A stretch of 51,129 nucleotides of DNA from a virus: IMG/VR virus record IMGVR_UViG_3300033412_000644; one strand, written 5' to 3'. The notes below the pieces were generated by a model, which ran no database searches, was not told where the DNA came from, and saw only the letters and a program-made list of their open reading frames with translations. The position numbers and the translations under genes were made by a program. This document shows, piece after piece, positions 2,938-43,013 of the stretch. Numbering within the stretch: position 1 is the first letter of the stretch; every line of letters starts with the position of its first letter.

Positions 2938-3201
2938 ATGAGGATCACCCTCCGCCAACTCCGGGACCTGATCAGCGAAGTCATCAGCGCTTCTCCTCAA
3001 TACATGCAAAAGGAGAGGGTGCGCGAGCAGCTGCAGGCCGCCATCGTCGCTGCGGTGCAGGCCGGTAAGGTCAAGGACCCCGCGACCCTGGCAGCGTTCC
3101 TGAAGAGGTTGAGCCGTCCCGCCTCACCGGACAAGGACTTGGCGCTGACGGCGTTGAAGTCGATTCCGTTTGAGGTGTGGTTGAAACTGGCAAAGATGTA
3201 G
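2938..3201 (+). CDS. small protein carrying the shared N-terminal motif (family member 1: MRITLRQLRDLISE)
   Basis: The N-terminal 15 aa are conserved with ORFs at 10099, 32977 and 37937. Confidence 0.5.
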   Translation: MRITLRQLRDLISEVISASPQYMQKERVREQLQAAIVAAVQAGKVKDPATLAAFLKRLSRPASPDKDLALTALKSIPFEVWLKLAKM

Positions 3202-3213
3202 TAGGGTCTGGTC

Positions 3214-3741
3214 ATGAAGAAGACGTCACAGCAGTGGTGGGCGGAGGTCAAGGCCGATCCTGACAAGCTCAACGGTTGGTTGATCAGGCAGTACCGAGGA
3301 GAAGCGACGGCGAGTCGACGCATCAAGGAATTCGCCGACCGCTACGCTCCGGACACGGTGACCAAGCGAATCCTCGGCATGATCGCCGACCAAGAGAAGC
3401 AACACGCAGAGTGGGTGTTGGAGCTGTTGAAGGCACGAGGCATCGAGCCCAACCTCAACGACGCCGAGAAGCGCTACTGGAAAGAGACGTTGCCCGACAT
3501 CAAGACGTTCGCGACCGGAGCCGCAGTGGGTGCTCACGCCGAGCGGATGCGCCTCGAGCGAATCGAGACCATTGCCAACGACCGCGGCGCGCCCCAAGAC
3601 ATCCGGAAGACCTTCCAGCTGATCCTGAAGGACGAGCTGTTCCACGCCGCTGCGTTTGAGCAGATGGCGGGACCCGAAGCGTTGGAGCAGACGCTCCCGT
3701 CGCACCGTCGAGGTCGCGAAGCGCTCGGCCTCGAGCCGTGA
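3214..3741 (+). CDS. ferritin-like helical protein (two ExxH motifs)
   Basis: EKQH and ELFH motifs about 100 aa apart in a predicted all-helical 175-aa protein. A diiron-carboxylate-like fold is inferred only. Confidence 0.4.
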   Translation: MKKTSQQWWAEVKADPDKLNGWLIRQYRGEATASRRIKEFADRYAPDTVTKRILGMIADQEKQHAEWVLELLKARGIEPNLNDAEKRYWKETLPDIKTFATGAAVGAHAERMRLERIETIANDRGAPQDIRKTFQLILKDELFHAAAFEQMAGPEALEQTLPSHRRGREALGLEP

Positions 3742-6759: not shown

Positions 6760-6795
6760 CTGTATTTCGTATCCGAACTGTGGTATGGTGAATCC

Positions 6796-7029
6796 ATGCA
6801 CACCATTGAGCTCGATTTTGCCCACGATTGCGACCACACTCGGGATAGTCAGAACTTGGCGCAACGACACGGGTGCTCAGTGCGTCTACTCAAGGAGTTC
6901 GGCCCGGCGGGCGGCAATCCTCTGTACCAATTCACCGGCACCCGCTTGAATCTGGTGTCCATGCTTAGCGAGTTCTGTCAGGACCGCGACACCCTCAACC
7001 ACCAACTGACACGCATCAGGAACACATGA
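6796..7029 (+). CDS. hypothetical protein
   Basis: 77-aa ORF filling the gap. ATGA overlap with rnh. Confidence 0.3.
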   Translation: MHTIELDFAHDCDHTRDSQNLAQRHGCSVRLLKEFGPAGGNPLYQFTGTRLNLVSMLSEFCQDRDTLNHQLTRIRNT

Positions 7030-10098: not shown

Positions 10099-10929
10099 AT
10101 GCGGATCCGCCTGGGCGACCTTCGCCGGCTCATCATCAATGAATACAGTGACGCTGCCTGTCGTTACGAAGGCGAAGTCATCAAGTCGTTGAAGGTGGCC
10201 GGTGCCAACGGCTACATGAAGCGGGCGGCGTGCAGCGATGCCAGCCGCCCCGACGCCGACATGAAGGTGGAGGGCGAGGTCTACTACGTCGAGGTCAAGC
10301 TGGACAGCAATGCCCGCATGGGTGGTGGCTCCGTTGGCTATTCGGCGTCCGACATGAAGTTCTTCGCCGCCGGGCAGAACCGCGACCTCAGCGAGACCGT
10401 CGTTGCCTTGCTCAATGACATGAACGACACCTCACTGCACAAGGGCCTGCGGAAGTTCCTACAGGTGTTGTCGAAGGTGTCAGGCAAGCAGTTCAATGGC
10501 GTGCCGATCAGTGGTTTCACCGGACAGGCCTGGGCGACTGCCAAGGACATGGGCCTGCTGCAGGCCATCAACCGCAGCTTCGACAGCAGCATCGACGTCA
10601 TCCGCGCCCACTACGCCAAGAAGGACACTCACTACATCCAGATCGGTGGCGCTGGCTTCTTTCACCTGGGCAGCAACCCGGCCAACCTGCCGGTACCGCA
10701 GCTCGAAGGACGCGTTCGCCTGGAAGTGCAACTCTCGATGGCAGGTGGCAAGGAAGGCAGCGACAAGCGCGCCGCCGGCATGCGAGTCTGGGCTCGCCTG
10801 AAGATCAACGGGCAGTCACCGTACTCGATCGACAACCCCGAAAGCGTCGAGGAAATGTTGGCAGCAGCCGGTGCACAGCCCGCACCTGCCGCCAAGCCTG
10901 CGGCCAAGAAGAAGCCTCGGGCCGCCTAG
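10099..10929 (+). CDS. 276-aa protein carrying the shared N-terminal motif (member 2: MRIRLGDLRRLIINE); basic AKPAAKKKPRAA tail
   Basis: N-terminal motif shared with 2938, 32977 and 37937. Confidence 0.5.
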   Translation: MRIRLGDLRRLIINEYSDAACRYEGEVIKSLKVAGANGYMKRAACSDASRPDADMKVEGEVYYVEVKLDSNARMGGGSVGYSASDMKFFAAGQNRDLSETVVALLNDMNDTSLHKGLRKFLQVLSKVSGKQFNGVPISGFTGQAWATAKDMGLLQAINRSFDSSIDVIRAHYAKKDTHYIQIGGAGFFHLGSNPANLPVPQLEGRVRLEVQLSMAGGKEGSDKRAAGMRVWARLKINGQSPYSIDNPESVEEMLAAAGAQPAPAAKPAAKKKPRAA

Positions 10930-14846: not shown

Positions 14847-14878
14847 AAATCGCTTGCCTCACGGTGTAGTGTCACCGC

Positions 14879-15073
14879 ATGAGCGTCAAAGCTGAAGGAC
14901 CCGAGTACCTGGTCGAGTTGGCGAAGGCGCAGGGAATTGCCTGCGCGACGGTGAAAGACGGCCACGTGTTGGTCTTCACCAAGAGTCACTTGGAGATGCT
15001 GCTGGCGGCGATGGCCGAGAAGCAACAGGACAAGTGCATCGTCTTCGTCAAGCGACCGGAGTTCAACGGATGA
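14879..15073 (+). CDS. hypothetical small protein
   Basis: 64 aa. ATGA overlap with the next gene. Confidence 0.35.
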   Translation: MSVKAEGPEYLVELAKAQGIACATVKDGHVLVFTKSHLEMLLAAMAEKQQDKCIVFVKRPEFNG

Positions 15074-16167
15074 GATTCGAGCCGGGATTCGTCCAGGGAC
15101 TCCGCGACGACCTGAAGCAAGTGCGCAGCGACTACCGCGACCGAGTGGAACGGCTCGGCGGTCTGACGGGTGAAGAGCTCGTCAAGTTGGTCAGCGCACC
15201 GCGGGAAGACCAAGTCGCGTTTCCGGACCACCCAACTCACCGCGACCTCGACACCTACCTCAACGCTGAAGTCCACCGCAGCGTCGGCGTCGACGCGATC
15301 AAGAACGGAGAGGTAGGTTACATCATCCTCGCTGGCGGCGCGGGCACCCGAATCGGTGGGCCCAAGGCGCTGATGCAGCTACCAGGCCTGGGCCTGTCGT
15401 TGCTGGCACAGAAGGTGATGTCGGCCAACGTCGAAGGACACGCTCTGCCGCTGTACATCATGACATCGCCAGGCATGTTGACGGACATCGGCCGGACGTT
15501 GAGCAGCCTGTCGCCCCTGCCTCAAGGCATCGCCTTTGAGCAGTTCGAGTCGTATCGTCTGACTCCCGACAATCGTTTGGCGTTTTTGAAGCCGAACGTA
15601 CCGGACCTTTATCCGACAGGTCACGGCGACGTGGGCATGGCGATCAGGACCTCGGGCGCTTTGGCCGAGAACCCCAACATCAAGCACTTCATCATCGTCA
15701 ATGTTGACAATGTGTGTGGCACTCCCGACCCGATCGTACTGGGTCATCACATCGCCACCAATGCACCGGTGACGTGTGAAGTCGTCGCTCGCAATGAAAG
15801 CGACAAAGCAGGCGGAGTGCTGGCGTGGGTCGACAACATGCTGCAGGTCGTCGAGGCGTTCCGGTTGGAGCCCAGCTTCGTCGAGGACTCGACGTACACC
15901 AACACCAACACCATGATCATCCGACGGGATGTGCTGGAGGCTGACATCACGTGGAAGTGGCACCGCGTCCGCAAGCAAGTCGGGACTCGCCTCGTCATCC
16001 AGCACGAGCGCCTGTTGCAGCAGTACACCGCGCTGCACTCCACGCGTTATGTCGTGGTGCCGCGAGAACAACGCTACTTCCCGATCAAGGATGAGGCTGC
16101 CCTGCAAGAAGCAGGCAAGCTCTTCAATGGCAACCCCATGAAGAGCGTGGTAAAATGCGAACCGTGA
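15070..16167 (+). CDS. UDP-sugar pyrophosphorylase (UDPGP family, UAP1/USP-like)
   Basis: GYIILAGGAGTRIGGPKAL nucleotide-binding loop (LAGGxGTRLG) and PTGHGDV motif. Confidence 0.65.
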   Translation: MRFEPGFVQGLRDDLKQVRSDYRDRVERLGGLTGEELVKLVSAPREDQVAFPDHPTHRDLDTYLNAEVHRSVGVDAIKNGEVGYIILAGGAGTRIGGPKALMQLPGLGLSLLAQKVMSANVEGHALPLYIMTSPGMLTDIGRTLSSLSPLPQGIAFEQFESYRLTPDNRLAFLKPNVPDLYPTGHGDVGMAIRTSGALAENPNIKHFIIVNVDNVCGTPDPIVLGHHIATNAPVTCEVVARNESDKAGGVLAWVDNMLQVVEAFRLEPSFVEDSTYTNTNTMIIRRDVLEADITWKWHRVRKQVGTRLVIQHERLLQQYTALHSTRYVVVPREQRYFPIKDEAALQEAGKLFNGNPMKSVVKCEP

Positions 16168-17673: not shown

Positions 17674-17750
17674 AACGACACCTCTGGATCATAGCTATTG
17701 GGTTGCGCTAAGGTTGTCCTGTGGGCGACGTCCAGTGTAGGATCCGCCAC

Positions 17751-20985: not shown

Positions 20986-21007
20986 TGTGAGGTACCGCAA
21001 CGACAAC

Positions 21008-21913
21008 ATGCTGCTGCGCATTGCTCAGGCTGATGCCTACGGCATGGCGCGTGAATACGTCAAGACCAAAGACGCACCTGATCACGTTGCCGAGTGCCTC
21101 AAGCTGGAGCGCTACCTGCGCCACCCTACATACCATAAGTTGCCGGCCGGCACCTACACTGACGACACCCAGATGTCGATCGCAGTGAGCGAGGTCCTGA
21201 TCAACAAGCACGGCGACGCCACCCACGAAGAGTGGGCCGAGGCGTTCTTCCAGGCGTTCAAGCGCGACCAACGAGACGGCTACTCCCGCCACTTCCAGGC
21301 GATCCTCGAGGAGGCCAGGGACAGCACCCACATGCGGTCGTTGCTGACGCCGACGTCGACTGCCAACGGCGCTTGCATGCGTGCAGTCCCGTTGGGCGTG
21401 TTGCCCAGCAAGAAGACGCTGCTTGAGGTCGCCGCCAAACAGGCGATGGTGACCCACGCGACCTACGGTGGCATCAATTCAGCCAGCGCCGTCGCCCTGA
21501 TGTCACACTTTGCCCTCTACGACCGTCGAGACTTTGCTTGCCTCTACGACTGGTGTTGCCATTGGCTGCCGGCGTTTGAGCTTTTCCGTGAGCCTTGGGT
21601 GGGCCCGGTGCAGGAGAATTCAAAGGACAAGAGGGGTCTCGGAGTCGGTATGAACACCGCGTGGGCGGTGAGCACCCTGCTCCGCGAAGAGAAGTCTTTG
21701 ATGGCGATCCTACGGCGCACCATCGAGTGGGGAGGCGACACCGATTCTGTCGCCGCGGTCGCCTGGGGAATTGCCTCGGCGCGGTACCAGGACGAGCAGC
21801 TGCCTGAGTTCTTCGAAAGAGATCTCGAAAAAGATAGTGGCAGCGCGTATGGGCCTACGTACCTGAAAGCGCTAGGCAAACAGCTGATGGACGCCTACAA
21901 CCCGCGCAGATAA
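21008..21913 (+). CDS. ADP-ribosylglycohydrolase (ARH/DraG family)
   Basis: C-terminal GGDTDSVAAVAWGIA matches the ARH GGDTDT motif. N-terminal LRIAQADAYGM. Start is 20987 (GTG) or 21008 (ATG). Confidence 0.65.
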   Translation: MLLRIAQADAYGMAREYVKTKDAPDHVAECLKLERYLRHPTYHKLPAGTYTDDTQMSIAVSEVLINKHGDATHEEWAEAFFQAFKRDQRDGYSRHFQAILEEARDSTHMRSLLTPTSTANGACMRAVPLGVLPSKKTLLEVAAKQAMVTHATYGGINSASAVALMSHFALYDRRDFACLYDWCCHWLPAFELFREPWVGPVQENSKDKRGLGVGMNTAWAVSTLLREEKSLMAILRRTIEWGGDTDSVAAVAWGIASARYQDEQLPEFFERDLEKDSGSAYGPTYLKALGKQLMDAYNPRR

Positions 21914-21943
21914 AACACCTCCCGCAGGTCGTATGGTGGCAGC

Positions 21944-22984
21944 ATGAGCCACTTCACACTGACGGTCCGACTATCCGCTGAGCGTCTACGTCAACACGAT
22001 GACGACATCGAGTCGGCACTGGAGGAAATCCTCGCGCCCTACAACGAGCAGACCGAGGACCGGAAGTTCCAGGAGTTCCAGGACAACGAGGACGAGTACC
22101 TCGACGAGTACGAGAACAAGTCCACCAAGAAGATCAAAGGACCGCGTGGTCACCTCTACTGGCCTTGGGACGACAAGTTCCGCGTCAAAGGATCGTTCGG
22201 CACCGGCTCCGGCACCCACGATTACAAGCAGCTCGCCGGCTACACTGAGGTCGAGGTCCCATTCAAGAAGCTGTACGCCACCTTCGATGAGTTCTGCTCG
22301 CAGTACCACAGCAGCGAGCGCGATGCAGAGAAGGGTCGGCACGGTTACTGGCGCAATCCCAATGCAAAGTGGGACTGGTGGGTCATCGGTGGACGATGGT
22401 CGGGTCACTATCCTCTGAAGTCGACAGCACCGCGGCGCCTGGGCGAGTCCGGTGCCTTCAACAATGCGCCGACCCCCGATCACGGTGACATCGTCCGCAT
22501 CAGCGACCTCGACACCGACATCATCGCTACACAGACTCGAGAGAATGCCGAGAAGTTCTATGAGGAGTACGTCAAGCTGCTCGCTGGCGAGAAGTTCGAT
22601 GCCTTCGACGGACCTCGGAGTCGAGCGATGTCGCTGGGCCTGTTGCGAGTCGAACAGAAACCGGTCGAAGCGGGTCCTGGCGAAGTGGCGATGTCATGGC
22701 GTGACTCGGTGCGAGCTGACGACAAGCGTGCTGACTGGACCGACGTCGCCAAAGTCATCGACCGGGAGACCTTCCTGAGGGACTACACCGACTGCTTCAA
22801 TCCGATCCTGACTTACGCCGCTCTGGACGAAGAGGGTTGGCACGCTCCCGGGGAGATGGGCTGGTTCGGTTGCTCCAGCGACACACCGGAGGCGTACCTT
22901 CAGTTCAAGAATGAGTTCGTCCGACGCTTCATCAAGACTGCAGCGGCCGACGATGTGTTGGTCTGTGTGGACTGTCACATCTGA
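21944..22984 (+). CDS. hypothetical protein
   Basis: 346 aa, acidic N-terminal region, no recognised domain. Confidence 0.45.
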   Translation: MSHFTLTVRLSAERLRQHDDDIESALEEILAPYNEQTEDRKFQEFQDNEDEYLDEYENKSTKKIKGPRGHLYWPWDDKFRVKGSFGTGSGTHDYKQLAGYTEVEVPFKKLYATFDEFCSQYHSSERDAEKGRHGYWRNPNAKWDWWVIGGRWSGHYPLKSTAPRRLGESGAFNNAPTPDHGDIVRISDLDTDIIATQTRENAEKFYEEYVKLLAGEKFDAFDGPRSRAMSLGLLRVEQKPVEAGPGEVAMSWRDSVRADDKRADWTDVAKVIDRETFLRDYTDCFNPILTYAALDEEGWHAPGEMGWFGCSSDTPEAYLQFKNEFVRRFIKTAAADDVLVCVDCHI

Positions 22985-26319: not shown

Positions 26320-26416
26320 TGAAACTCGGCATCTGAAAAGCGCATGTCGTCCGCTACTTAGATTATGGTGTCAACATGGACCCAGGACTTCACATCCCCA
26401 CCAACACGCTAGAGAA

Positions 26417-27126: not shown

Positions 27127-27158
27127 AACAGGTGGGCGTGCAGCGGTAGAATCGTTGC

Positions 27159-28784
27159 ATGAACGGTTTCCAAGACCCCAACGAACCTGCATCGACTCAG
27201 GTCATCTTCTCCAGCGAAGCTCGCAAGCAACTGTACGAAGGCCTGAAGGTCGCCGCCGAAGCTGTCGGCTGCACGCTCGGCCCGAAGGGCAAGACAGTCC
27301 TCATCCAACGCCCCGGCGAGTCGCCCCTCGTCACCAAGGACGGCGTCACTGTCAGCAAGGCAATTCGCCTGAAGAATCAGGTGCAACGCATGGGCGCCGA
27401 GTTGATCCGAGAGGCTGCGGCCCGGACCAATGAGGTGGCAGGTGACGGCACCACGACGGCCACCATTCTGACCCACGCGTTGGTCCAGGAGGGCATCAAG
27501 CTGTTGGAGGCCGGTTACTCCTCACAGCTGCTGTGCCGAGGCATCGACAAGGCGGTCCAGCACCTGCTCGACCAGTTGAAGCAGGACGCCAAGCAGCTGA
27601 CGACCGACGAAGAGGTCGCCCAGGTCGGCACCATCAGCGCCAATGGCGACGCAAACATCGGCGACCTCATCGCTCAGGCGATGAAGAAAGTAGGCCGTGA
27701 CGGCATCATCACCGTCGAAGACGCCAAGGGTATGGCAACGACCCTCGAGGTCGTCGAAGGCATGCAGTTCGACCGAGGCTACCTCAGCCCCTACTTCGTC
27801 ACCAACCCCGAGCGGATGTTGGCGTCGTACGGTGATGCTCTGGTCCTGGTCACCGACAAGAAGCTCAACAGCCTCCGCGACCTGATCCCGGTGTTGGAAC
27901 AGGTGGTGCAAGCACAGCGCCCGCTGCTCATCATTGCCGAGGACGTCGAAGGTGAGGCACTGCAAGGATTGGTGTTGAACCGTGTCAAGTCGAACCTACC
28001 GGTCGTCTGCATCAAGGCGCCGGGCTACGGTTCCCACCGCGATGAACTCCTCCGGGACATCTGCGTCCTGACGGGAGCCACGCTGGTGTCTAGCGCGACC
28101 GGCGCGGACCTGAAGAGCGCCGCTGGGTGCTTGGGCCAGTGCAAGAAGATCGTTGTCGACGCCAAGACGTCGACCTTGGTCGGCACCGGCGCTACCAAAG
28201 AGCAGGTCGAGAAGCACGTCGCTGACCTCCGAGCCCAGTTGGAGGACGTCACCCTCGGCCAGGAAGACATCGTCAAGCTGAAGACCCGCGTCGCCAAATT
28301 GGCGTCAGGCGTCGCCGTCGTCAAGGTCGGCGGTGCGACTGAGGTCGAGATGAACGAACGCAAGTACCGCATCGAGGACGCACTCAACGCGACTCGCGCC
28401 GCGGCCGACGAAGGCATCGTTCCCGGCGGCGGCATGGCTCTATTCAACGCGGTCCAGGGAGTCAAGGGCGAGCTGTGCAAGCCCGGCATGGACCGCGATG
28501 AAGTCGCCGGAGTTGAGGTGGTCGTCGACGCCTGTCTCGCGCCCCTCAAAAAGATCGTCGCCAACGCCGGCCAGAACTCAGGCGTCGTCATCGACAACCT
28601 ACACCGTCAATCCGGTGTCGGCTACAACGCGGCAACCGGCAAGTACGAAGACCTGATCGCAGCGGGCATCATTGACCCGGTCAAGGTGACGCGGTCGGCG
28701 CTGCAGCACGCAGCGTCGGTGGCCACCACCTTCCTGTCGCTCGATGCAGTCGTCTGTGACGAGGAGAAGAAGGACAATGGCTGA
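27159..28784 (+). CDS. groEL: chaperonin GroEL (Hsp60), no GGM tail, no adjacent GroES
   Basis: About 50% colinear identity to E. coli GroEL (AGDGTTTATIL, VEGMQFDRGYLSPYF, PLLIIAEDVEGEAL, AADEGIVPGGG). TAGAAT -10-like hexamer 8 nt upstream. Confidence 0.95.
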   Translation: MNGFQDPNEPASTQVIFSSEARKQLYEGLKVAAEAVGCTLGPKGKTVLIQRPGESPLVTKDGVTVSKAIRLKNQVQRMGAELIREAAARTNEVAGDGTTTATILTHALVQEGIKLLEAGYSSQLLCRGIDKAVQHLLDQLKQDAKQLTTDEEVAQVGTISANGDANIGDLIAQAMKKVGRDGIITVEDAKGMATTLEVVEGMQFDRGYLSPYFVTNPERMLASYGDALVLVTDKKLNSLRDLIPVLEQVVQAQRPLLIIAEDVEGEALQGLVLNRVKSNLPVVCIKAPGYGSHRDELLRDICVLTGATLVSSATGADLKSAAGCLGQCKKIVVDAKTSTLVGTGATKEQVEKHVADLRAQLEDVTLGQEDIVKLKTRVAKLASGVAVVKVGGATEVEMNERKYRIEDALNATRAAADEGIVPGGGMALFNAVQGVKGELCKPGMDRDEVAGVEVVVDACLAPLKKIVANAGQNSGVVIDNLHRQSGVGYNAATGKYEDLIAAGIIDPVKVTRSALQHAASVATTFLSLDAVVCDEEKKDNG

Positions 28785-31956: not shown

Positions 31957-32310
31957 TCAGAGGGTGATTGAGTGACCGCTCTCTGGAAAACCCTGGTAAG
32001 GCGGTAGCACGTCGCGGGACGGAGGCTCGGGTGCGGGCTCCTCATCTTGCGGCGTGAACTGAATGATGATCGGCGGCGAGCAATGGCAGATGATGTGGTA
32101 TCCGCTCTGCTTGTCACCCACCAGTTCGAGGTAGGTACCGCGTTGACACCAGGCGCCATCTTCGTACCTCTCGACGTGATCCTGACAGCTTTCGGCCTTG
32201 ATTGGCGAACCTGCCGGCACACGGATACTAGCTATGGCGCTCACGAACAGACCCACCGAGACGGACACGATGAGTCCGGCCTGGAGCGGGTTGAGGCGTC
32301 GAAACCACAC
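31957..32310 (-). CDS. membrane protein
   Basis: N-terminal TM helix. 117 aa. Confidence 0.35.
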   Translation of the reverse strand: MWFRRLNPLQAGLIVSVSVGLFVSAIASIRVPAGSPIKAESCQDHVERYEDGAWCQRGTYLELVGDKQSGYHIICHCSPPIIIQFTPQDEEPAPEPPSRDVLPPYQGFPESGHSITL

Positions 32311-32313
32311 GAC

Positions 32314-32559
32314 CTATTCTTGGTCCGCGACGAGCACAGAGTTCACTTCCAACCACCAAGCCGCAATGCGGTGCAACTTGCCGTCGGCGAGCAACAGCGC
32401 GATGTGACCTTTGGCCTCACCTTCGTCGACCATCCCCACCACCGTCACTCGTTCGCCGGTGCCCAGGATGATCTCTTGTCCCGAAGAAACGTGACCGATG
32501 GTGTAGGGCCGAGTCAGGCGCAGCAGCTGTCCAGGTTTGACCTGGTCACGTTCGACCAT
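32314..32559 (-). CDS. hypothetical protein
   Basis: 81 aa. Confidence 0.35.
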   Translation of the reverse strand: MVERDQVKPGQLLRLTRPYTIGHVSSGQEIILGTGERVTVVGMVDEGEAKGHIALLLADGKLHRIAAWWLEVNSVLVADQE

Positions 32560-32604
32560 GAGGCAAAGTATACAGCTACGACCCGATGGAATACAAGCTG
32601 AGCG

Positions 32605-32961
32605 ATGGAGTTCGATCTAGAGGGAGCTGAGGGCATCACTGTCGAGGGCGACGTTGAGATGGAACTGCCCGACTACGTGGTGATGCTGCCTCGCGAGGAG
32701 CTCGAAGAGGCCAAGCGGGCCGCACAGAGAAATCAGATGGTGTTGGCCGTTGGTCGCCACCCAGCATCGGGAGACATTGTCCTGTTGACCGGTGGGGGCA
32801 CGCTGATGGAGCTGTCGAAAGGCCACGACGGCATCCCCGACGGACCGGTGATGCCCATCGACTTTGGCCACACGGTCGCGATCGACACTGGCAAGGGATA
32901 CTACGAGATGGCGGCGGACTGGGTCATCCACAACGCCAGGACCATCATCAAGCCCACCTGA
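32605..32961 (+). CDS. hypothetical protein
   Basis: 118 aa. Confidence 0.4.
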   Translation: MEFDLEGAEGITVEGDVEMELPDYVVMLPREELEEAKRAAQRNQMVLAVGRHPASGDIVLLTGGGTLMELSKGHDGIPDGPVMPIDFGHTVAIDTGKGYYEMAADWVIHNARTIIKPT

Positions 32962-32976
32962 TGCCTACTTACTCAT

Positions 32977-33231
32977 GTGAAGATCACGTTGGGAGAGCTG
33001 CGCCGATTCATTCGAGAGGAAGTCGAGCGTAACAATCGATGGTCAGCAGGTTTCTTTGGTGGTGGCGGACTGGACCGCGCCCAGAGCGACAATAGGCTGC
33101 CACCTCCGGGCTTGGGTTCGGACGACGACGAAGACGACACACAACATGGCAAAGAACAAGAAAAGTCACAACCAGCAGTTCGAGTCGACGATCGAGCGAG
33201 AGGATCGTCTGGAACTTCAGGGCTTCGTTGA
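32977..33231 (+). CDS. small protein carrying the shared N-terminal motif (member 3: VKITLGELRRFIREE; GTG start)
   Basis: Motif shared with 2938, 10099 and 37937. The 3' part overlaps infA in another frame. Confidence 0.4.
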   Translation: MKITLGELRRFIREEVERNNRWSAGFFGGGGLDRAQSDNRLPPPGLGSDDDEDDTQHGKEQEKSQPAVRVDDRARGSSGTSGLR

Positions 33232-33409
33232 TGAGGCGTTGCCCGGCACCCTGTTCAAGGTCAAGTGCGACAACGGTCTGCTCGTCCTGTGCACCTTGGC
33301 GGGCAAGCTGCGCATGAACAGGATTCGCATCCTCCCCGGCGACGCAGTGACGATTGAGGTGTCGCCTTACGACACCAGCAAAGGCAGGATCACGTGGCGC
33401 GGAAGGTGA
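33146..33409 (+). CDS. infA: translation initiation factor IF-1 (bacterial type) with ~17-aa N-terminal extension
   Basis: LQGFVDEALPGTLFKV...GKLRMNRIRILPGDAVTIEVSPYDTSKGRITWR matches E. coli IF-1 MQGTVLETLPNTMFRV...[33 protein letters not shown]. Confidence 0.85.
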   Translation: MAKNKKSHNQQFESTIEREDRLELQGFVDEALPGTLFKVKCDNGLLVLCTLAGKLRMNRIRILPGDAVTIEVSPYDTSKGRITWRGR

Positions 33410-33420
33410 AAGAGAAGTTC

Positions 33421-33627
33421 ATGCCGCGAGGCATCAAGGCGTGTCCACACTGCGGCAGCGACAAGAAGCTAGTGCGCGTCGATCAGTACGACGCCATCGC
33501 TTGTCGCAATTGCCTGCGCTGGCTTGAAAGTGGCTGCAGCCAGAAAAACTGCGACTTCTGCAGCAAGCGTCCGCCGACGCCCAATGGTGTCGATTGGGAC
33601 GATCCCAACAACACTGTCTACGGCTAG
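33421..33627 (+). CDS. zinc-ribbon protein
   Basis: CPHCGS...CRNC...C...CDFC. Confidence 0.4.
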   Translation: MPRGIKACPHCGSDKKLVRVDQYDAIACRNCLRWLESGCSQKNCDFCSKRPPTPNGVDWDDPNNTVYG

Positions 33628-33812
33628 AGGCCGAGCAGCGGCTTCCACACCTTGGGCCAATCGTTGGCCACGACAACGTAGCCGCTGATCAGCGCCATCG
33701 CGCCGAGGCAGACTGCGCCGCCGAGGTGAGGCATCAGCGCGAACATGACACAGCCGACGGCTGAGCCCAGAGTCATCAGCAACGAGAAGGTTGCACCGAG
33801 GTACTTTGCCAT
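33624..33812 (-). CDS. small membrane protein
   Basis: Two TM helices. Start chosen so it abuts the upstream gene. Confidence 0.35.
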   Translation of the reverse strand: MAKYLGATFSLLMTLGSAVGCVMFALMPHLGGAVCLGAMALISGYVVVANDWPKVWKPLLGL

Positions 33813-33813
33813 G

Positions 33814-34023
33814 TCAGTAACTATCGTTCCCGTACGGGTCGCGTAGTCGGTCCTGATCATCGAGTTCGCTGGCGACGAACCAGATCGTGGTAGCACCCAT
33901 CAAAGCAACGACGATGACACCGGCCATGTCACCCTTCGCCCACTCGAGCCAACAGACCATGCCAGTGCCCACGGCGACCAGGCCGAGGATGACGTACCAG
34001 ACAATCACAGCGCGTCGAGACAT
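33814..34023 (-). CDS. small membrane protein
   Basis: Two TM helices. The long ORF 33814..34359 is trimmed because it is antisense to the 34051 gene. Confidence 0.35.
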   Translation of the reverse strand: MSRRAVIVWYVILGLVAVGTGMVCWLEWAKGDMAGVIVVALMGATTIWFVASELDDQDRLRDPYGNDSY

Positions 34024-34050
34024 GGTCAAATCGTCTCTGGTTTGCAGTGA

Positions 34051-34815
34051 GTGTTCAACATACTTAGCGACATGGCGACGACGATTGCAGTCATCAACAA
34101 ATCGACTCTGGTCTCTGATGAGGACGCGAGACTGATGACTCTCGCGATCGACTATCAGTTGGTCAAGCACATTGCTCCGCTGTCTAACCGCGGCGTGTGG
34201 CATGCCAAGTTCTACACGAAGGACGCAGTGGTTCCGGCAGGTCAGCTGCCCCTGGTCATCTTCGACAACCCCGACCAGGCCAACGCATTGGGCTATCACT
34301 CCGAGGATCCCAACGGCAAGCCCTTCGGTCGCGTCTTTGCCAAGCCTGTTCTTGAGCACGGCGGCTCGGCGATGACGGGAACCTTGTCGGTGTCAGCGGT
34401 GTTGTCCCACGAGGCGTGTGAGATGTTCTGCGACAAGAGCTGCAACATGTGGATCGACCGCATGGACGGCACGCTGGTTGCGCTGGAGGTCTGTGACCCA
34501 GTCGAGAACGACGCCTATGACGTTCCAGTCGTCAATGCCACGGGCCAGACGATCCAGGTCAGCGTCAGCAACTTCGTCCTCTACCAATGGTTCGATGCCT
34601 TCGCACCCGCGGGCACCCGCTTCGACTACATGAAGAAGGTGACGGCGCCGCTGACAATGAGCGAAGGCGGTTACCTCATCGTCCTTGACCTGTCAACGGG
34701 TCAGGTGAACGAGGTGTTCGGCAGCAAGGAAGCTGAGAAGCTGCACCGGCAGAAGAAGCCTCACCACCCGGCCGCGCGGACGACGCGCCGCCACGGCCAT
34801 CACGGCAAACACTGA
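34051..34815 (+). CDS. hypothetical protein
   Basis: 254 aa with normal composition and a His-rich tail. Confidence 0.45.
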   Translation: MFNILSDMATTIAVINKSTLVSDEDARLMTLAIDYQLVKHIAPLSNRGVWHAKFYTKDAVVPAGQLPLVIFDNPDQANALGYHSEDPNGKPFGRVFAKPVLEHGGSAMTGTLSVSAVLSHEACEMFCDKSCNMWIDRMDGTLVALEVCDPVENDAYDVPVVNATGQTIQVSVSNFVLYQWFDAFAPAGTRFDYMKKVTAPLTMSEGGYLIVLDLSTGQVNEVFGSKEAEKLHRQKKPHHPAARTTRRHGHHGKH

Positions 34816-36330: not shown

Positions 36331-36372
36331 GCCTCCATTGAACTCCACGACAACGAGACGTACAATCAGGGC

Positions 36373-36636
36373 ATGGCTAAGCGGCTTCCTAGCGACGTTC
36401 GCCAGTTCCTGCTGGACAATCCAGACGAGGTGCAGCACGTCCGCTATCGGATGGCCGATGCCGAGGAACGTCGAACTCGACCTGCACGCATCGAAGCCGA
36501 GAAGGCTCGCCGAGCTGCGCTCCCGCTCGAACCGTGCCGGGGCAACGGCTATGGCTGCGGCCGCATGACACCGGGCGGGTATGAGTGCGACTCATGCGTG
36601 CAGGAGTTCAAGGATGATCCAGATGCATTCAAGTGA
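36373..36636 (+). CDS. zinc-ribbon protein
   Basis: CRGNGYGCG...YECDSC. Confidence 0.35.
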   Translation: MAKRLPSDVRQFLLDNPDEVQHVRYRMADAEERRTRPARIEAEKARRAALPLEPCRGNGYGCGRMTPGGYECDSCVQEFKDDPDAFK

Positions 36637-37660: not shown

Positions 37661-37977
37661 AGTGTCGGAAGTACCCGACTCCGGGCACCGTCGTCACGAT
37701 GCCGTCGATCGGATTGGGCACCCCTGATCCGAATCATCCCAACAAGTGGAGCGTGGTCACCGTCCGAGAAGGCACGCCGGCGATGGTGCTGGCCGATGAC
37801 GTGACCTACAAGCTCGCTCGTGAACTGCGCTGTGTTGCCTTCATGCTGCCCACCGGTCAGATCGTTCTTGAAGATCGAGAACGGGTCTCGGGGTGGCAAA
37901 GCCGCGTTATCTGGGCGCCCGAGAGTATTTACCTCGGTGAAACTGACGATCCGACAGCTGCGACGACTGATTCGTGA
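37657..37977 (+). CDS. hypothetical protein
   Basis: 106 aa. Confidence 0.3.
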   Translation: MKCRKYPTPGTVVTMPSIGLGTPDPNHPNKWSVVTVREGTPAMVLADDVTYKLARELRCVAFMLPTGQIVLEDRERVSGWQSRVIWAPESIYLGETDDPTAATTDS

Positions 37978-38245
37978 GGCCATCAGCAACGGCTGGGCAT
38001 CACCGCCGCAGCCCTTGGGCGCAGCGAAGGGCATGACCAACTCCCGAGAGCAGATCGGCTCGTTGGCTGCAAAGGACGTCGACACTGACGATGAGACGGG
38101 CCTGTCGTCCCACCTAGTCGAACCCGAGGTGGACCCCGAAGATTGCTTCGGTCCGGTGCCGCCTCGTAAGGAAGGCGATCCGTTCTACGCCCAACAGGAC
38201 CCCTTCGTCCGAGACGCTGACGTGTTGCCACAGCCGCGACGCTAG
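37937..38245 (+). CDS. small protein carrying the shared N-terminal motif (member 4: VKLTIRQLRRLIREA; GTG start)
   Basis: Motif is in frame inside ORF 37820..38245, at a GTG preceded by CTCGG. Confidence 0.4.
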   Translation: MKLTIRQLRRLIREAISNGWASPPQPLGAAKGMTNSREQIGSLAAKDVDTDDETGLSSHLVEPEVDPEDCFGPVPPRKEGDPFYAQQDPFVRDADVLPQPRR

Positions 38246-38280: not shown

Positions 38281-38649
38281 TCAGGTCATCAATCGAGTAC
38301 GGTACGGTTTGGCCAGGACTTCGTAGCCCGAGGAAACTCGGGGCGATTGGTTTCCCGTGGTGATGACCAACGGAATCTTCTGTAGTGCCGGCGCCATAGC
38401 GATGACGTTGAGCACGTCCCACCCACTGAAGTAAGGCATCTCCAGGTCGAGCAGGATCAGGCCGGGATGATTGATGCGCTGTGGGTCTGTCAGGATCTTT
38501 ACGGCTTCAACGCCATTGGACACGCCGATGACCTTGTAACCACCGACTTGTAGCATGAGGACGAGCGCGGCGCGCAGGTCAACGTCATCCTCAATGGCGA
38601 GTACGTAATTGATGTGGCGAAGCGAGGCCGGTACGTTGCGGTGTGGCAT
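38281..38649 (-). CDS. standalone CheY-like response-regulator receiver domain
   Basis: LAIEDD acidic pair, phospho-acceptor Asp in ILLDLEMP, conserved T/S and K (LAKPY). 122 aa. Confidence 0.7.
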   Translation of the reverse strand: MPHRNVPASLRHINYVLAIEDDVDLRAALVLMLQVGGYKVIGVSNGVEAVKILTDPQRINHPGLILLDLEMPYFSGWDVLNVIAMAPALQKIPLVITTGNQSPRVSSGYEVLAKPYRTRLMT

Positions 38650-42460: not shown

Positions 42461-42761
42461 GGTGATCCTGGTCTCGGTCGTGCGTCAGCTTCCGCATGTG
42501 TTTCTCCTGCCAACGACCTTCACGCAGCAGCTGTGTCGCTCGCATCTCGTCGATCTTGTGTTCCAGCTTCTTCATCCTGACCAATGCCGTCGCCACCGAC
42601 ATCAGACCGGCGACGCAGATACCGTTCTGCAGTCGTTCAGGAAAAGCAGGATTCCAGACGATGAAGACGGCAGTTGAGAACAACCACGCCTCTGGAAGGA
42701 ATTCGGCAAGCCAATTGAACAGCTTGGATAGCCAAGGAAGGGGACTTTGCCACAACGTCAT
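42453..42761 (-). CDS. membrane protein
   Basis: Two TM helices. 102 aa. Confidence 0.35.
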   Translation of the reverse strand: MTLWQSPLPWLSKLFNWLAEFLPEAWLFSTAVFIVWNPAFPERLQNGICVAGLMSVATALVRMKKLEHKIDEMRATQLLREGRWQEKHMRKLTHDRDQDHHE

Positions 42762-42773
42762 GATCTCACTATA

Positions 42774-43013
42774 TCACTTGTCGAAAAGTTCTCGCAGCAG
42801 CTTCATGACGTGGGCGGCATGGCGACCGTGCCACGTGAGGCTGGCGGTGTCGACTGCGCAGAGAGGAATCTCCTTCTTTTCCATGAGCTTGGACAACTCC
42901 TTGCCGCTGAGCTCCACCGAGATGAGCTTGCCTTCGACGGTCGGGAACGATTGTCCCAGCGTGTAGGAGTAGGTGACGTCTTGTTTCTTGACGTTGGCGA
43001 TGATCTTGAGCAT
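42774..43013 (-). CDS. hypothetical protein
   Basis: 79 aa. Confidence 0.35.
   Translation of the reverse strand: MLKIIANVKKQDVTYSYTLGQSFPTVEGKLISVELSGKELSKLMEKKEIPLCAVDTASLTWHGRHAAHVMKLLRELFDK

Follow-up and report, generated by a model that had tools for sequence, protein, structure and literature searches.

A bacterial-type IF-1 with a basic N-terminal tail, overlapped out of frame by a conserved small gene, in a clade of putative huge phages

We found a gene for a bacterial-type translation initiation factor IF-1 with an OB-fold core on IMG/VR virus record IMGVR_UViG_3300033412_000644, a DNA stretch of 51,129 nucleotides that we refer to as the window. The protein encoded by this open reading frame (ORF B, 33146..33409, + strand) carries a clade-specific, basic N-terminal tail that is predicted to be intrinsically disordered. 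Its start codon lies inside a small upstream open reading frame (sORF or ORF A, 32977..33231, +), which is read in another frame and which, judged by its sequence conservation, is itself a real gene. The overlap of the two is a conserved feature of the whole phage clade, not a curiosity of one window, and appears to be previously undescribed. As the best overall explanation, which we hold to be reasonably probable, we propose that a functional phage IF-1 is made from the downstream cistron of a conserved module of two genes, that its translation starts in an open tract of the mRNA, and that its output is tied to the sORF.

Results

The window encodes a bacterial-type IF-1

The frame from ATG 33146 to TGA 33407-33409 encodes 87 residues (MAKNKKSHNQQFESTIEREDRLELQGFVDEALPGTLFKVKCDNGLLVLCTLAGKLRMNRIRILPGDAVTIEVSPYDTSKGRITWRGR). 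The protein scored well above the family cut-offs, i.e., 78.8 bits against Pfam PF01176 (cut-off 30.2) and 90.3 bits against the NCBIfam infA equivalog TIGR00008 (cut-off 61.15). The archaeal and eukaryotic IF-1A models, in contrast, reached 27 bits at best, with cut-offs of at least 91. Aligned without gaps, 38 of 72 residues (53%) were identical to E. coli IF1; the alignment with PDB 9fco_I / 1ah9 agrees with this count. A sequence-only reading of the window had given this identity as about 55%, which was close but slightly too high.

We produced an AlphaFold2 model built on 26 relatives. For most of residues 21-87, the predicted local distance difference test (pLDDT) was about 88–95 per ten-residue block, and the model has OB topology with five strands and one short helix. 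This predicted core, together with the stop codon, spans 33206..33409 (+), and the protein stops two residues past the OB fold. The closest solved structures were all bacterial IF-1. Foldseek superposed the model on E. coli IF1 bound to the 30S subunit (9fco_I) with a root-mean-square deviation (rmsd) of 1.0 Å, a template modeling (TM) score of 0.93 and 54% identity, and it also placed the core on the 30S-bound T. thermophilus protein (1hr0_W). All top matches were IF-1, with rmsd values of 1.0–1.5 Å and TM scores of 0.88–0.94.

Residues G53, K54, R56, N58, R61 and R85 correspond to E. coli G38, K39, R41, N43, R46 and R70. Across the clade, little or no variation is seen in the basic loop G-K-L-R-M-N-R-I-R and the C-terminal Arg, with R56, R61 and R85 invariant or almost invariant. 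In E. coli, K39, R41, R46 and R70 (Met1 numbering) are presumably the contacts to 16S rRNA h44, the 530 loop and S12 (PDB 1HR0). The window protein hence shares with bacterial IF-1 (infA; 1AH9, 1HR0, 9FCO) the S1-like OB fold, the basic loop G-K-x-R-x-N-x-I-R and the C-terminal Arg. It differs from bacterial IF-1 in its disordered basic tail of 15–17 residues and in the aromatic residue at E. coli position 44, which is R, H or N throughout the phage clade. Moreover, its gene is not in an adk/rpmJ ribosomal neighborhood, and it starts inside another gene with no Shine-Dalgarno (SD) sequence of its own. A longer IF-1 starting at TTG 33056 was ruled out because relatives have stop codons directly 5' of the conserved ATG.

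IF-1 relatives are found on large, phage-like contigs

We found more than 600 relatives of the window IF-1. The nearest are 66–87% identical, all are 85–100 residues long, and they come from contigs of 180, 278-282 and 369 kb on which gene order is conserved, i.e., AAA ATPase, Cpn60, small Pfam-less genes, a gene of 118–130 codons, IF-1, more small genes and a metallophosphatase. These contigs are densely packed with small Pfam-less genes, and GIY-YIG or HNH homing endonucleases occur here and there. One relative has a GIY-YIG homing endonuclease directly after IF-1 that overlaps the IF-1 3' end (L018 8236-9084; L019 993-1841), and an HNH gene lies near the IF-1 locus in L102.

Window genes with PHROG matches comprise the GroEL-type chaperonin (525 bits against phrog_5725), an exonuclease, a NinI-like phosphatase and several families of unknown function; IF-1 itself matches phrog_30201. 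The 51-kb window itself contains no gene for a capsid protein, portal or terminase, and the phage assignment therefore rests on synteny and gene content. From these, the genome appears to be that of a huge phage of an uncultivated clade. Among 185,579 GTDB species genomes, with one genome per prokaryotic species, the IF-1 clade had no member, and the best cellular IF-1 matches (60–63% identical) were scattered over Clostridia, Gemmatimonadota and Myxococcales. GenBank phages gave no nucleotide match to the 3 kb around the locus. In tblastn, IF-1 homologues of at most 57% identity were found in Lak megaphages, Bacteroides phages DAC16-23 and a few others. Family scores above cut-offs, the OB fold and the synteny of relatives thus bear out the earlier claim of a bacterial-type IF-1 on a phage-like genome.

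The IF-1 of this clade has a basic N-terminal tail

The N-terminal extension reads MAKNKKSHNQQFESTIE. E. coli Met1 aligns to residue 16, i.e., the extension has 15 residues relative to the E. coli protein; the 17 residues of the sequence-only reading are obtained when counting to the first residue aligned by the hidden Markov model (HMM). That the extension is real was confirmed by its presence in 26/26 close relatives, where M1 is invariant. Their consensus is Met followed by a basic and polar stretch (MAKNKK.HNQQ..S.T..) and then ER.DRLEL as the entry into the OB fold. From the start to the G.V anchor, we counted 10 residues in cellular IF-1 from the same scans versus 22–30 in the phage clade.

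Residues 1-20 (33146..33205, +) are basic and polar and had a pLDDT of about 50, which we therefore read as disorder. The tail composition was basic in AT-rich as well as GC-rich relatives, with the sequence otherwise poorly conserved, and the tail was kept where the sORF is absent (L022, L032, L033, L035, L037).

Basic N-terminal extensions also occurred outside the clade. We found one on a 415-kb IMG/VR contig (L005) and another, of about 30 residues, on Bacteroides phage DAC16 gp4 (DAC16_4, QIG63237.1; L187 553-858), a "hypothetical protein" that we identified as a 101-residue IF-1 homologue. A cellular IF-1 from Myxococcales, whose gene adjoins adk, has the basic extension MARRNNRPTEPREAKADKLEFEG.

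A conserved small gene precedes IF-1

The sORF starts with GTG at 32977, stops at 33229-33231 and encodes 84 residues. It consists of an N-terminal helix (MKITLGELRRFIREEVERNNRW), the motifs SAGFF-GGGG and PPPGLG, an acidic run, and the tail that overlaps IF-1. AlphaFold2 predicted a helix at residues 5-23 (pLDDT 85–88) and disorder for the remainder. An out-of-frame minimal ORF, ATG-TGA (cATGTGAag, 32975-32980), overlaps the GTG start.

Gene callers had left a "gap" of 170–205 nucleotides 5' of IF-1 in several relatives; upon translation, each contained an sORF orthologue. Orthologues lie directly 5' of IF-1 in 16 loci. Twelve orthologues from genomes of 35–61% GC align with M[KR]I.L..LR..IRE(E)VER..RW, SAGFF plus a Gly-rich stretch, PPPGLG and the acidic run. 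A profile search gave 187 homologues of 62–111 residues, all unnamed, and an exhaustive HMM search gave 139 clusters at 50% identity, nearly all of 57–114 residues. The sORF had no family match in Pfam, NCBIfam or PHROGs, and tblastn found no match in GenBank phages.

In the four closest pairs, the part of the sORF outside the overlap had proportions of nonsynonymous differences (pN) of 0.08–0.23 versus 0.51–0.72 for synonymous ones (pS), i.e., a ratio of the respective rates (dN/dS) of 0.07–0.13. Spurious overlapping ORFs are frequent at 60% GC. The sORF nevertheless goes beyond chance, since the protein is conserved across GC contents of 34–61% and pN is much below pS. Automatic gene calls missed the sORF or IF-1 in L017, L018, L020 and L105 (IF-1 in L105), and the overlap therefore leads to systematic under-annotation of related contigs. 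In L031 (about 230-530), the sORF homologue 5' of IF-1 is broken by an in-frame stop after MSTLRMMIRE; pseudogenization, recoding or an error in sequencing could each account for this.

We also considered ribosome stalling at PPPG, which would have to lie a constant distance from the IF-1 AUG. We dropped this candidate because some versions of the motif are not polyproline and the spacing varies between about 10 and 19 codons.

The sequence-only reading had listed the sORF as member 3 of a motif family, and this family proved real. Four window genes (2938, 10099, 32977 and 37937) begin with M[KR]I.L..LR.LI.E. They have only this N-terminal peptide in common and are otherwise unrelated: beside the sORF, they encode a helical protein of 87 residues (2938-3201, +), a protein of 276 residues that matches phrog_26930 (10099-10929, +), and a disordered protein of 102 residues (37937-38245, +). 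The amino-acid conservation of the peptide holds across GC contents. Some metagenomic proteins (P0355, P0356) carry two copies of the motif, one N-terminal and one internal.

The overlap of sORF and IF-1 is conserved

In the window, both genes share 86 nucleotides (33146..33231, +), exactly the length claimed before, with IF-1 in the +1 frame relative to the sORF. These nucleotides encode KEQEKSQPAVRVDDRARGSSGTSGLR as the sORF tail and MAKNKKSHNQQFESTIEREDRLELQGFV as the IF-1 N-terminal region. We found overlaps of 35–95 nucleotides in 16/16 independent loci of 34–61% GC in which both genes can be delimited, and IF-1 was always in the +1 frame. In one relative (L102), the gene callers themselves report the overlap, with genes at 3001-3219 and 3179-3430.

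The sORF tail (..EQEKSQPAVRVDDR..) is a frame-shifted image of the IF-1 tail (..KNKKSHNQQFESTIE..), i.e., GAR and CAR codons of one frame are AAR and AAY in the next. Both frames of the pair are under selection, as seen from the low dN/dS of the sORF outside the overlap and from the IF-1 start and tail kept in 26/26 relatives. We compared per-site differences between close pairs at IF-1 codon positions 1/2/3. Within the overlap, they were 0.15/0.28/0.33, compared with 0.19/0.09/0.55 for the remaining IF-1 codons. Inside the overlap, third-position freedom was hence lower and second-position change higher than in the rest of the gene, a pattern compatible with a tail that is itself weakly constrained but subject to a second constraint.

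One lineage has lost the IF-1 OB fold (L189 3001-3531, L190 150-680). Its sORF homologue continues in frame into a counterpart of the window gene at 37937, and what is left of the IF-1 tail (MIDTQINSLYVQTKTE) is encoded in the +1 frame, ahead of a stop.

The IF-1 start lies in an open tract

The sequence 5' of ATG 33146 is gacgacgaagacgacacacaac. Directly 5' of the AUG, we found neither a well-placed SD sequence nor a −10-like box. In relatives, GAGG occurred 5' of IF-1 only at erratic distances, as a by-product of Glu codons. In a promoter and terminator scan, the stretch between sORF and IF-1 contained neither a sigma-70 promoter nor a terminator, and an Rfam scan of 32000-34500 gave only one chance match below threshold.

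The 171 nucleotides around the IF-1 start folded no better than shuffled sequences (z = -0.08), with the start region unpaired in the prediction. We therefore rejected a regulatory hairpin at this site and note a conserved lack of structure instead. With RNAplfold, the probability that 20 nucleotides at the IF-1 AUG are unpaired was 0.12, compared with a local median of 4e-6, which places the site at the 99th percentile. Over the 16 loci, the mean percentile was 0.95 and the minimum 0.83. The 81 nucleotides centered on the AUG (33106..33186, +) are rich in A (0.36) and poor in T (0.11) compared with 0.21 and 0.19 window-wide, and this bias was present in all 16 loci. We presume that this A-rich, U-poor and structure-free tract is an SD-independent initiation region.

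Leaderless-type start spacing in the window

No SD sequence is present at the sORF GTG. The hexamer TACTTA (32966..32971, +), a candidate promoter element of the −10 type, ends five nucleotides before it. Given this box a few bases before the start and the lack of an SD sequence, the sORF mRNA is probably leaderless. Relatives have TAATTAT, TACTTA, TAGATAT or TATGTA at this position. TAYTTA occurred seven times in the window, always on the + strand (2928, 8081, 10089, 26355, 32966, 34061, 37926), and five of these copies lie 4–5 nucleotides before the ATG or GTG of ORFs of at least 50 residues (2938, 10099, 32977, 34072, 37937). TAYTTA may be a second, phage-specific promoter class. From the copy at 34061, we suggest that a gene of 254 residues starts at ATG 34072, not at GTG 34051. 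The copy at 26355 precedes a mere 15-codon ORF.

Independently, the hexamer TANNNT ended six nucleotides before the first ATG or GTG in 13 window ORFs, with 7 ORFs at five and 5 at seven nucleotides, compared with an average of 0.75 at each of the remaining offsets from 0 to 30. About 25 window genes thus have TANNNT ending 5–7 nucleotides before ATG or GTG, e.g., Cpn60 (TAGAATcgttgcATG) and the genes at 21944, 6796, 14879 and 17721. Sites with this arrangement are 27141-27161 (Cpn60), 21926-21946, 6778-6798, 14861-14881, 17703-17723, 3196-3216, 36355-36375 and 42761-42781 (−). The same peak was found in relatives L017, L018 and L020, with 16 cases at six nucleotides. A −10 box that drives transcripts starting right at the start codon would be expected at this distance, and we take the spacing as a signature of leaderless starts, not as proof. 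Several of the boxes have an upstream TG.

Other genes of the window and its relatives

A small zinc-ribbon gene with four CxxC-type pairs (33421..33627, +) starts 12 nucleotides past the IF-1 stop; its alternative start at GTG 33394 overlaps the IF-1 end. It had only weak matches below threshold, i.e., to Lar, TFIIB-type/Zn-ribbon families and ribosomal protein S14. No terminator was found between the two genes, and the zinc-ribbon gene is probably co-transcribed with IF-1. We rejected it as part of the clade-wide module because its conservation is limited to the closest relative (L020/L021).

At the end of the window, a vault-like gene (48396-51092, −) encodes 897 residues with a major-vault-protein shoulder domain, vault repeats and SPFH/Band-7. 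The adjacent gene (46392-48362, −) encodes a SPFH/Band-7 protein of 655 residues, and this vault/SPFH pair is odd cargo for a phage. Cell-like auxiliary genes at 776-2128, 15034-16167, 20987-21913, 27159-28784 and 38281-38649 (−) encode isocitrate lyase, a UDP-glucose pyrophosphorylase-like protein, ADP-ribosylglycohydrolase, the GroEL-type chaperonin and a response-regulator receiver domain. In relatives, two genes (L020 15866-16213, −, 115 residues; L017 14381-14989, −, 202 residues) match only positions 6-48, i.e., the N-terminal part, of the Pfam Gp23 profile for the major capsid protein.

Discussion

The explanation we favor can be drawn as follows. The first cistron would supply the conserved small protein, in which one amphipathic helix precedes a disordered region that is acidic and rich in Gly and Pro; the IF-1 tail codons are overprinted by the 3' end of this cistron. 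The purine- and A-rich, U-poor, unfoldable tract shared by both genes encodes acidic residues and Gln in one frame, and Lys and Asn in the +1 frame. Its openness may let ribosomes start at the internal, SD-less IF-1 AUG, either de novo or by re-initiation of ribosomes fresh from the sORF. IF-1 output would then be tied to sORF translation, i.e., to the passage or termination of ribosomes. The IF-1 core would occupy the 30S A site in the manner of host IF1, and the extra IF-1 present at infection time would supplement or replace host IF1. We suggest that it might favor leaderless first cistrons and closely packed downstream cistrons, on which initiation in this genome seems to depend. Both IF1 and IF2 are reported to stimulate leaderless-mRNA translation in vitro, and 70S-scanning initiation is reported to be strongly stimulated by IF1 (reviewed in PMC9031893). 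This effect would explain an IF-1 on a phage more specifically than a bias toward GTG-start genes, which the sequence-only reading had put forward and for which our analysis gave no evidence.

Several observations weigh against this explanation. TAYTTA lies 4–5 nucleotides from the start codon, nearer than the usual 6–7, and the window also has an SD-like peak at a spacing of 6–7 nucleotides. The genome is therefore not purely leaderless, and leaderless and SD initiation modes probably coexist in it. The codon-position signal in the overlap is mixed and shows no dominant frame, which makes these data ambiguous. The sORF stop position and tail length vary between loci, with overlaps between 35 and 95 nucleotides, and the overlap could therefore be tolerated, not used. 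Several relatives have the IF-1 tail without an sORF, and the overlap is thus not required for IF-1 expression. Moreover, the sORF tail pattern EQEKSQ..RV.DR, the frame-shifted image of the KNKK.. tail of IF-1, is seen even where there is no sORF (L022). Apart from the start spacings, these points would also be expected if the overlap were a neutral historical accident between two functional genes, with no regulatory or coupling role, that arose because the sORF had no earlier stop or because the IF-1 start moved 5' into the sORF. We consider such an accident unlikely. The sORF stop never fell before the IF-1 AUG in 16/16 loci of 34–61% GC, and these include AT-rich genomes, although AAT-AAR readily gives TAA there, as in the sORF-less L032 and L035. 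Moreover, the open A-rich start tract is conserved, and third-position variability of IF-1 is lower inside the overlap (0.33 versus 0.55). The constant +1 relation of both frames at every locus might also point to programmed +1 frameshifting that joins sORF and IF-1 into one fusion protein. We rejected this and regard it as hardly credible: the IF-1 ATG is invariant in 26/26 relatives, IF-1 stands alone in several of them, there is no conserved shift site and the sORF stop moves. None of the 139 family clusters contains an in-frame fusion, and the single long member results from run-on in the frame of the sORF.

Rather than the RNA tract, it may be the protein tail that matters. It would then act like the N-terminal tail of eIF1A or aIF1A and reach from the OB fold in the A site toward the mRNA channel or P site, or toward IF2 or IF3, shifting start-site selection on host ribosomes to phage messages. 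The N-terminal tail of eIF1A modulates start-codon selection. The OB core of the window IF-1 superposes on eIF1A and aIF1A in initiation complexes at an rmsd of 1.2–1.5 Å, and both have an unstructured basic N-terminal tail, so that the two tails might be functionally analogous. A tail that is basic in AT-rich, GC-rich and overlap-less loci would agree with this, as would the recurrence of basic N-terminal extensions in DAC16 gp4, L005 and cellular Myxococcales. The same holds for ribosomal protein S21 of huge phages, which has an analogous basic N-terminal extension proposed to be RNA-binding (PMC7162821). Like the window IF-1, S21 is a small ribosome ligand with a link to initiation that was copied into a phage and gained such an extension; it is, however, another protein at another ribosome site. 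On the other hand, apart from its composition, the tail shows little sequence conservation, and its disorder is predicted at low confidence. The window IF-1 is also clearly bacterial-type, lacks the C-terminal helical domain or tail of eIF1A and aIF1A, and missed the IF-1A family thresholds (27 bits versus at least 91). We see a tail-based role as possible but somewhat doubtful; it is compatible with, and not exclusive of, the two-gene module with an open-tract start that we prefer.

A very improbable alternative is that the contig is cellular, or that it carries a recently captured host infA without a phage-specific role. The cell-like genes of the window, i.e., isocitrate lyase, Cpn60, UDP-glucose pyrophosphorylase, the receiver domain and the vault/SPFH-like genes, would speak for it, as would the fact that the contig did not turn up among the IMG/VR matches. 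Yet the locus has no ribosomal-protein or adk/map/secY neighborhood, unlike cellular infA (cf. L041, L114), the clade is absent from the GTDB species genomes, and many window genes match PHROG families. Moreover, the IF-1 clade is deep and diverse (66–87% identity), with phage-like synteny on contigs of 180–369 kb. Going further than the two-gene module, one might claim that the sORF protein and the tailed IF-1 jointly form a phage device that reprograms host ribosomes toward leaderless and re-initiating phage mRNAs. Such a device would comprise a leaderless sORF message, an IF-1 made from inside it via the structure-free tract, feedback of IF-1 on its synthesis via 70S re-initiation behind the overlapping sORF, and a tail that acts as in eIF1A on start-site selection. 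As a whole, we rate this joint claim as improbable.

IF1 genes in huge phages have already been published (PMC7162821, PMC11748809), and it was proposed that they intercept or redirect host translation (PMC7162821). These proteins, including those of Lak, DAC16 gp4 and phrog_30201, resemble the window IF-1 in being phage-borne, some with basic N-terminal extensions. The window clade differs in its absence from GenBank phages and its identity of at most 57% to the other phage IF1. None of the other phage IF1 loci that we checked has an overlapping small gene 5' of IF-1, and the papers that we read mention neither a conserved overlap nor an open, SD-less start tract.

The motif family of the sORF recalls another phage system. 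T-even internal head proteins have only their capsid targeting sequence (CTS) in common (PMC3012670). In the window family, too, unrelated proteins share an N-terminal peptide of about 14 residues that ends in I/L-x-E, and it may be a sorting or capsid-targeting signal. Moreover, the small Gp23-like proteins of relatives match T4 gp23 only in its propeptide part. The peptide has no sequence homology to the T4 CTS, however, and its motif is also internal in some proteins. In the available DNA, we saw neither a prohead protease gene nor a capsid gene. We therefore offer the likeness as a lead to the function of the peptide, not as a result.

An IF-1 on a phage is hence not new. New are the clade of tailed IF-1, the partner gene that overprints the tail in a structure-free start region, and the leaderless-type start architecture of the genome. 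So far, phage initiation factors have been catalogued only as curiosities of gene content. Here, a tail on IF-1, an out-of-frame overlap with a partner gene and leaderless-type starts co-occur in one deep clade of putative huge phages, and a family of small proteins is flagged that gene callers missed in several related contigs. The small IF-1 and its partner would thus be a concrete and cheap handle on how phages bias host translation initiation.

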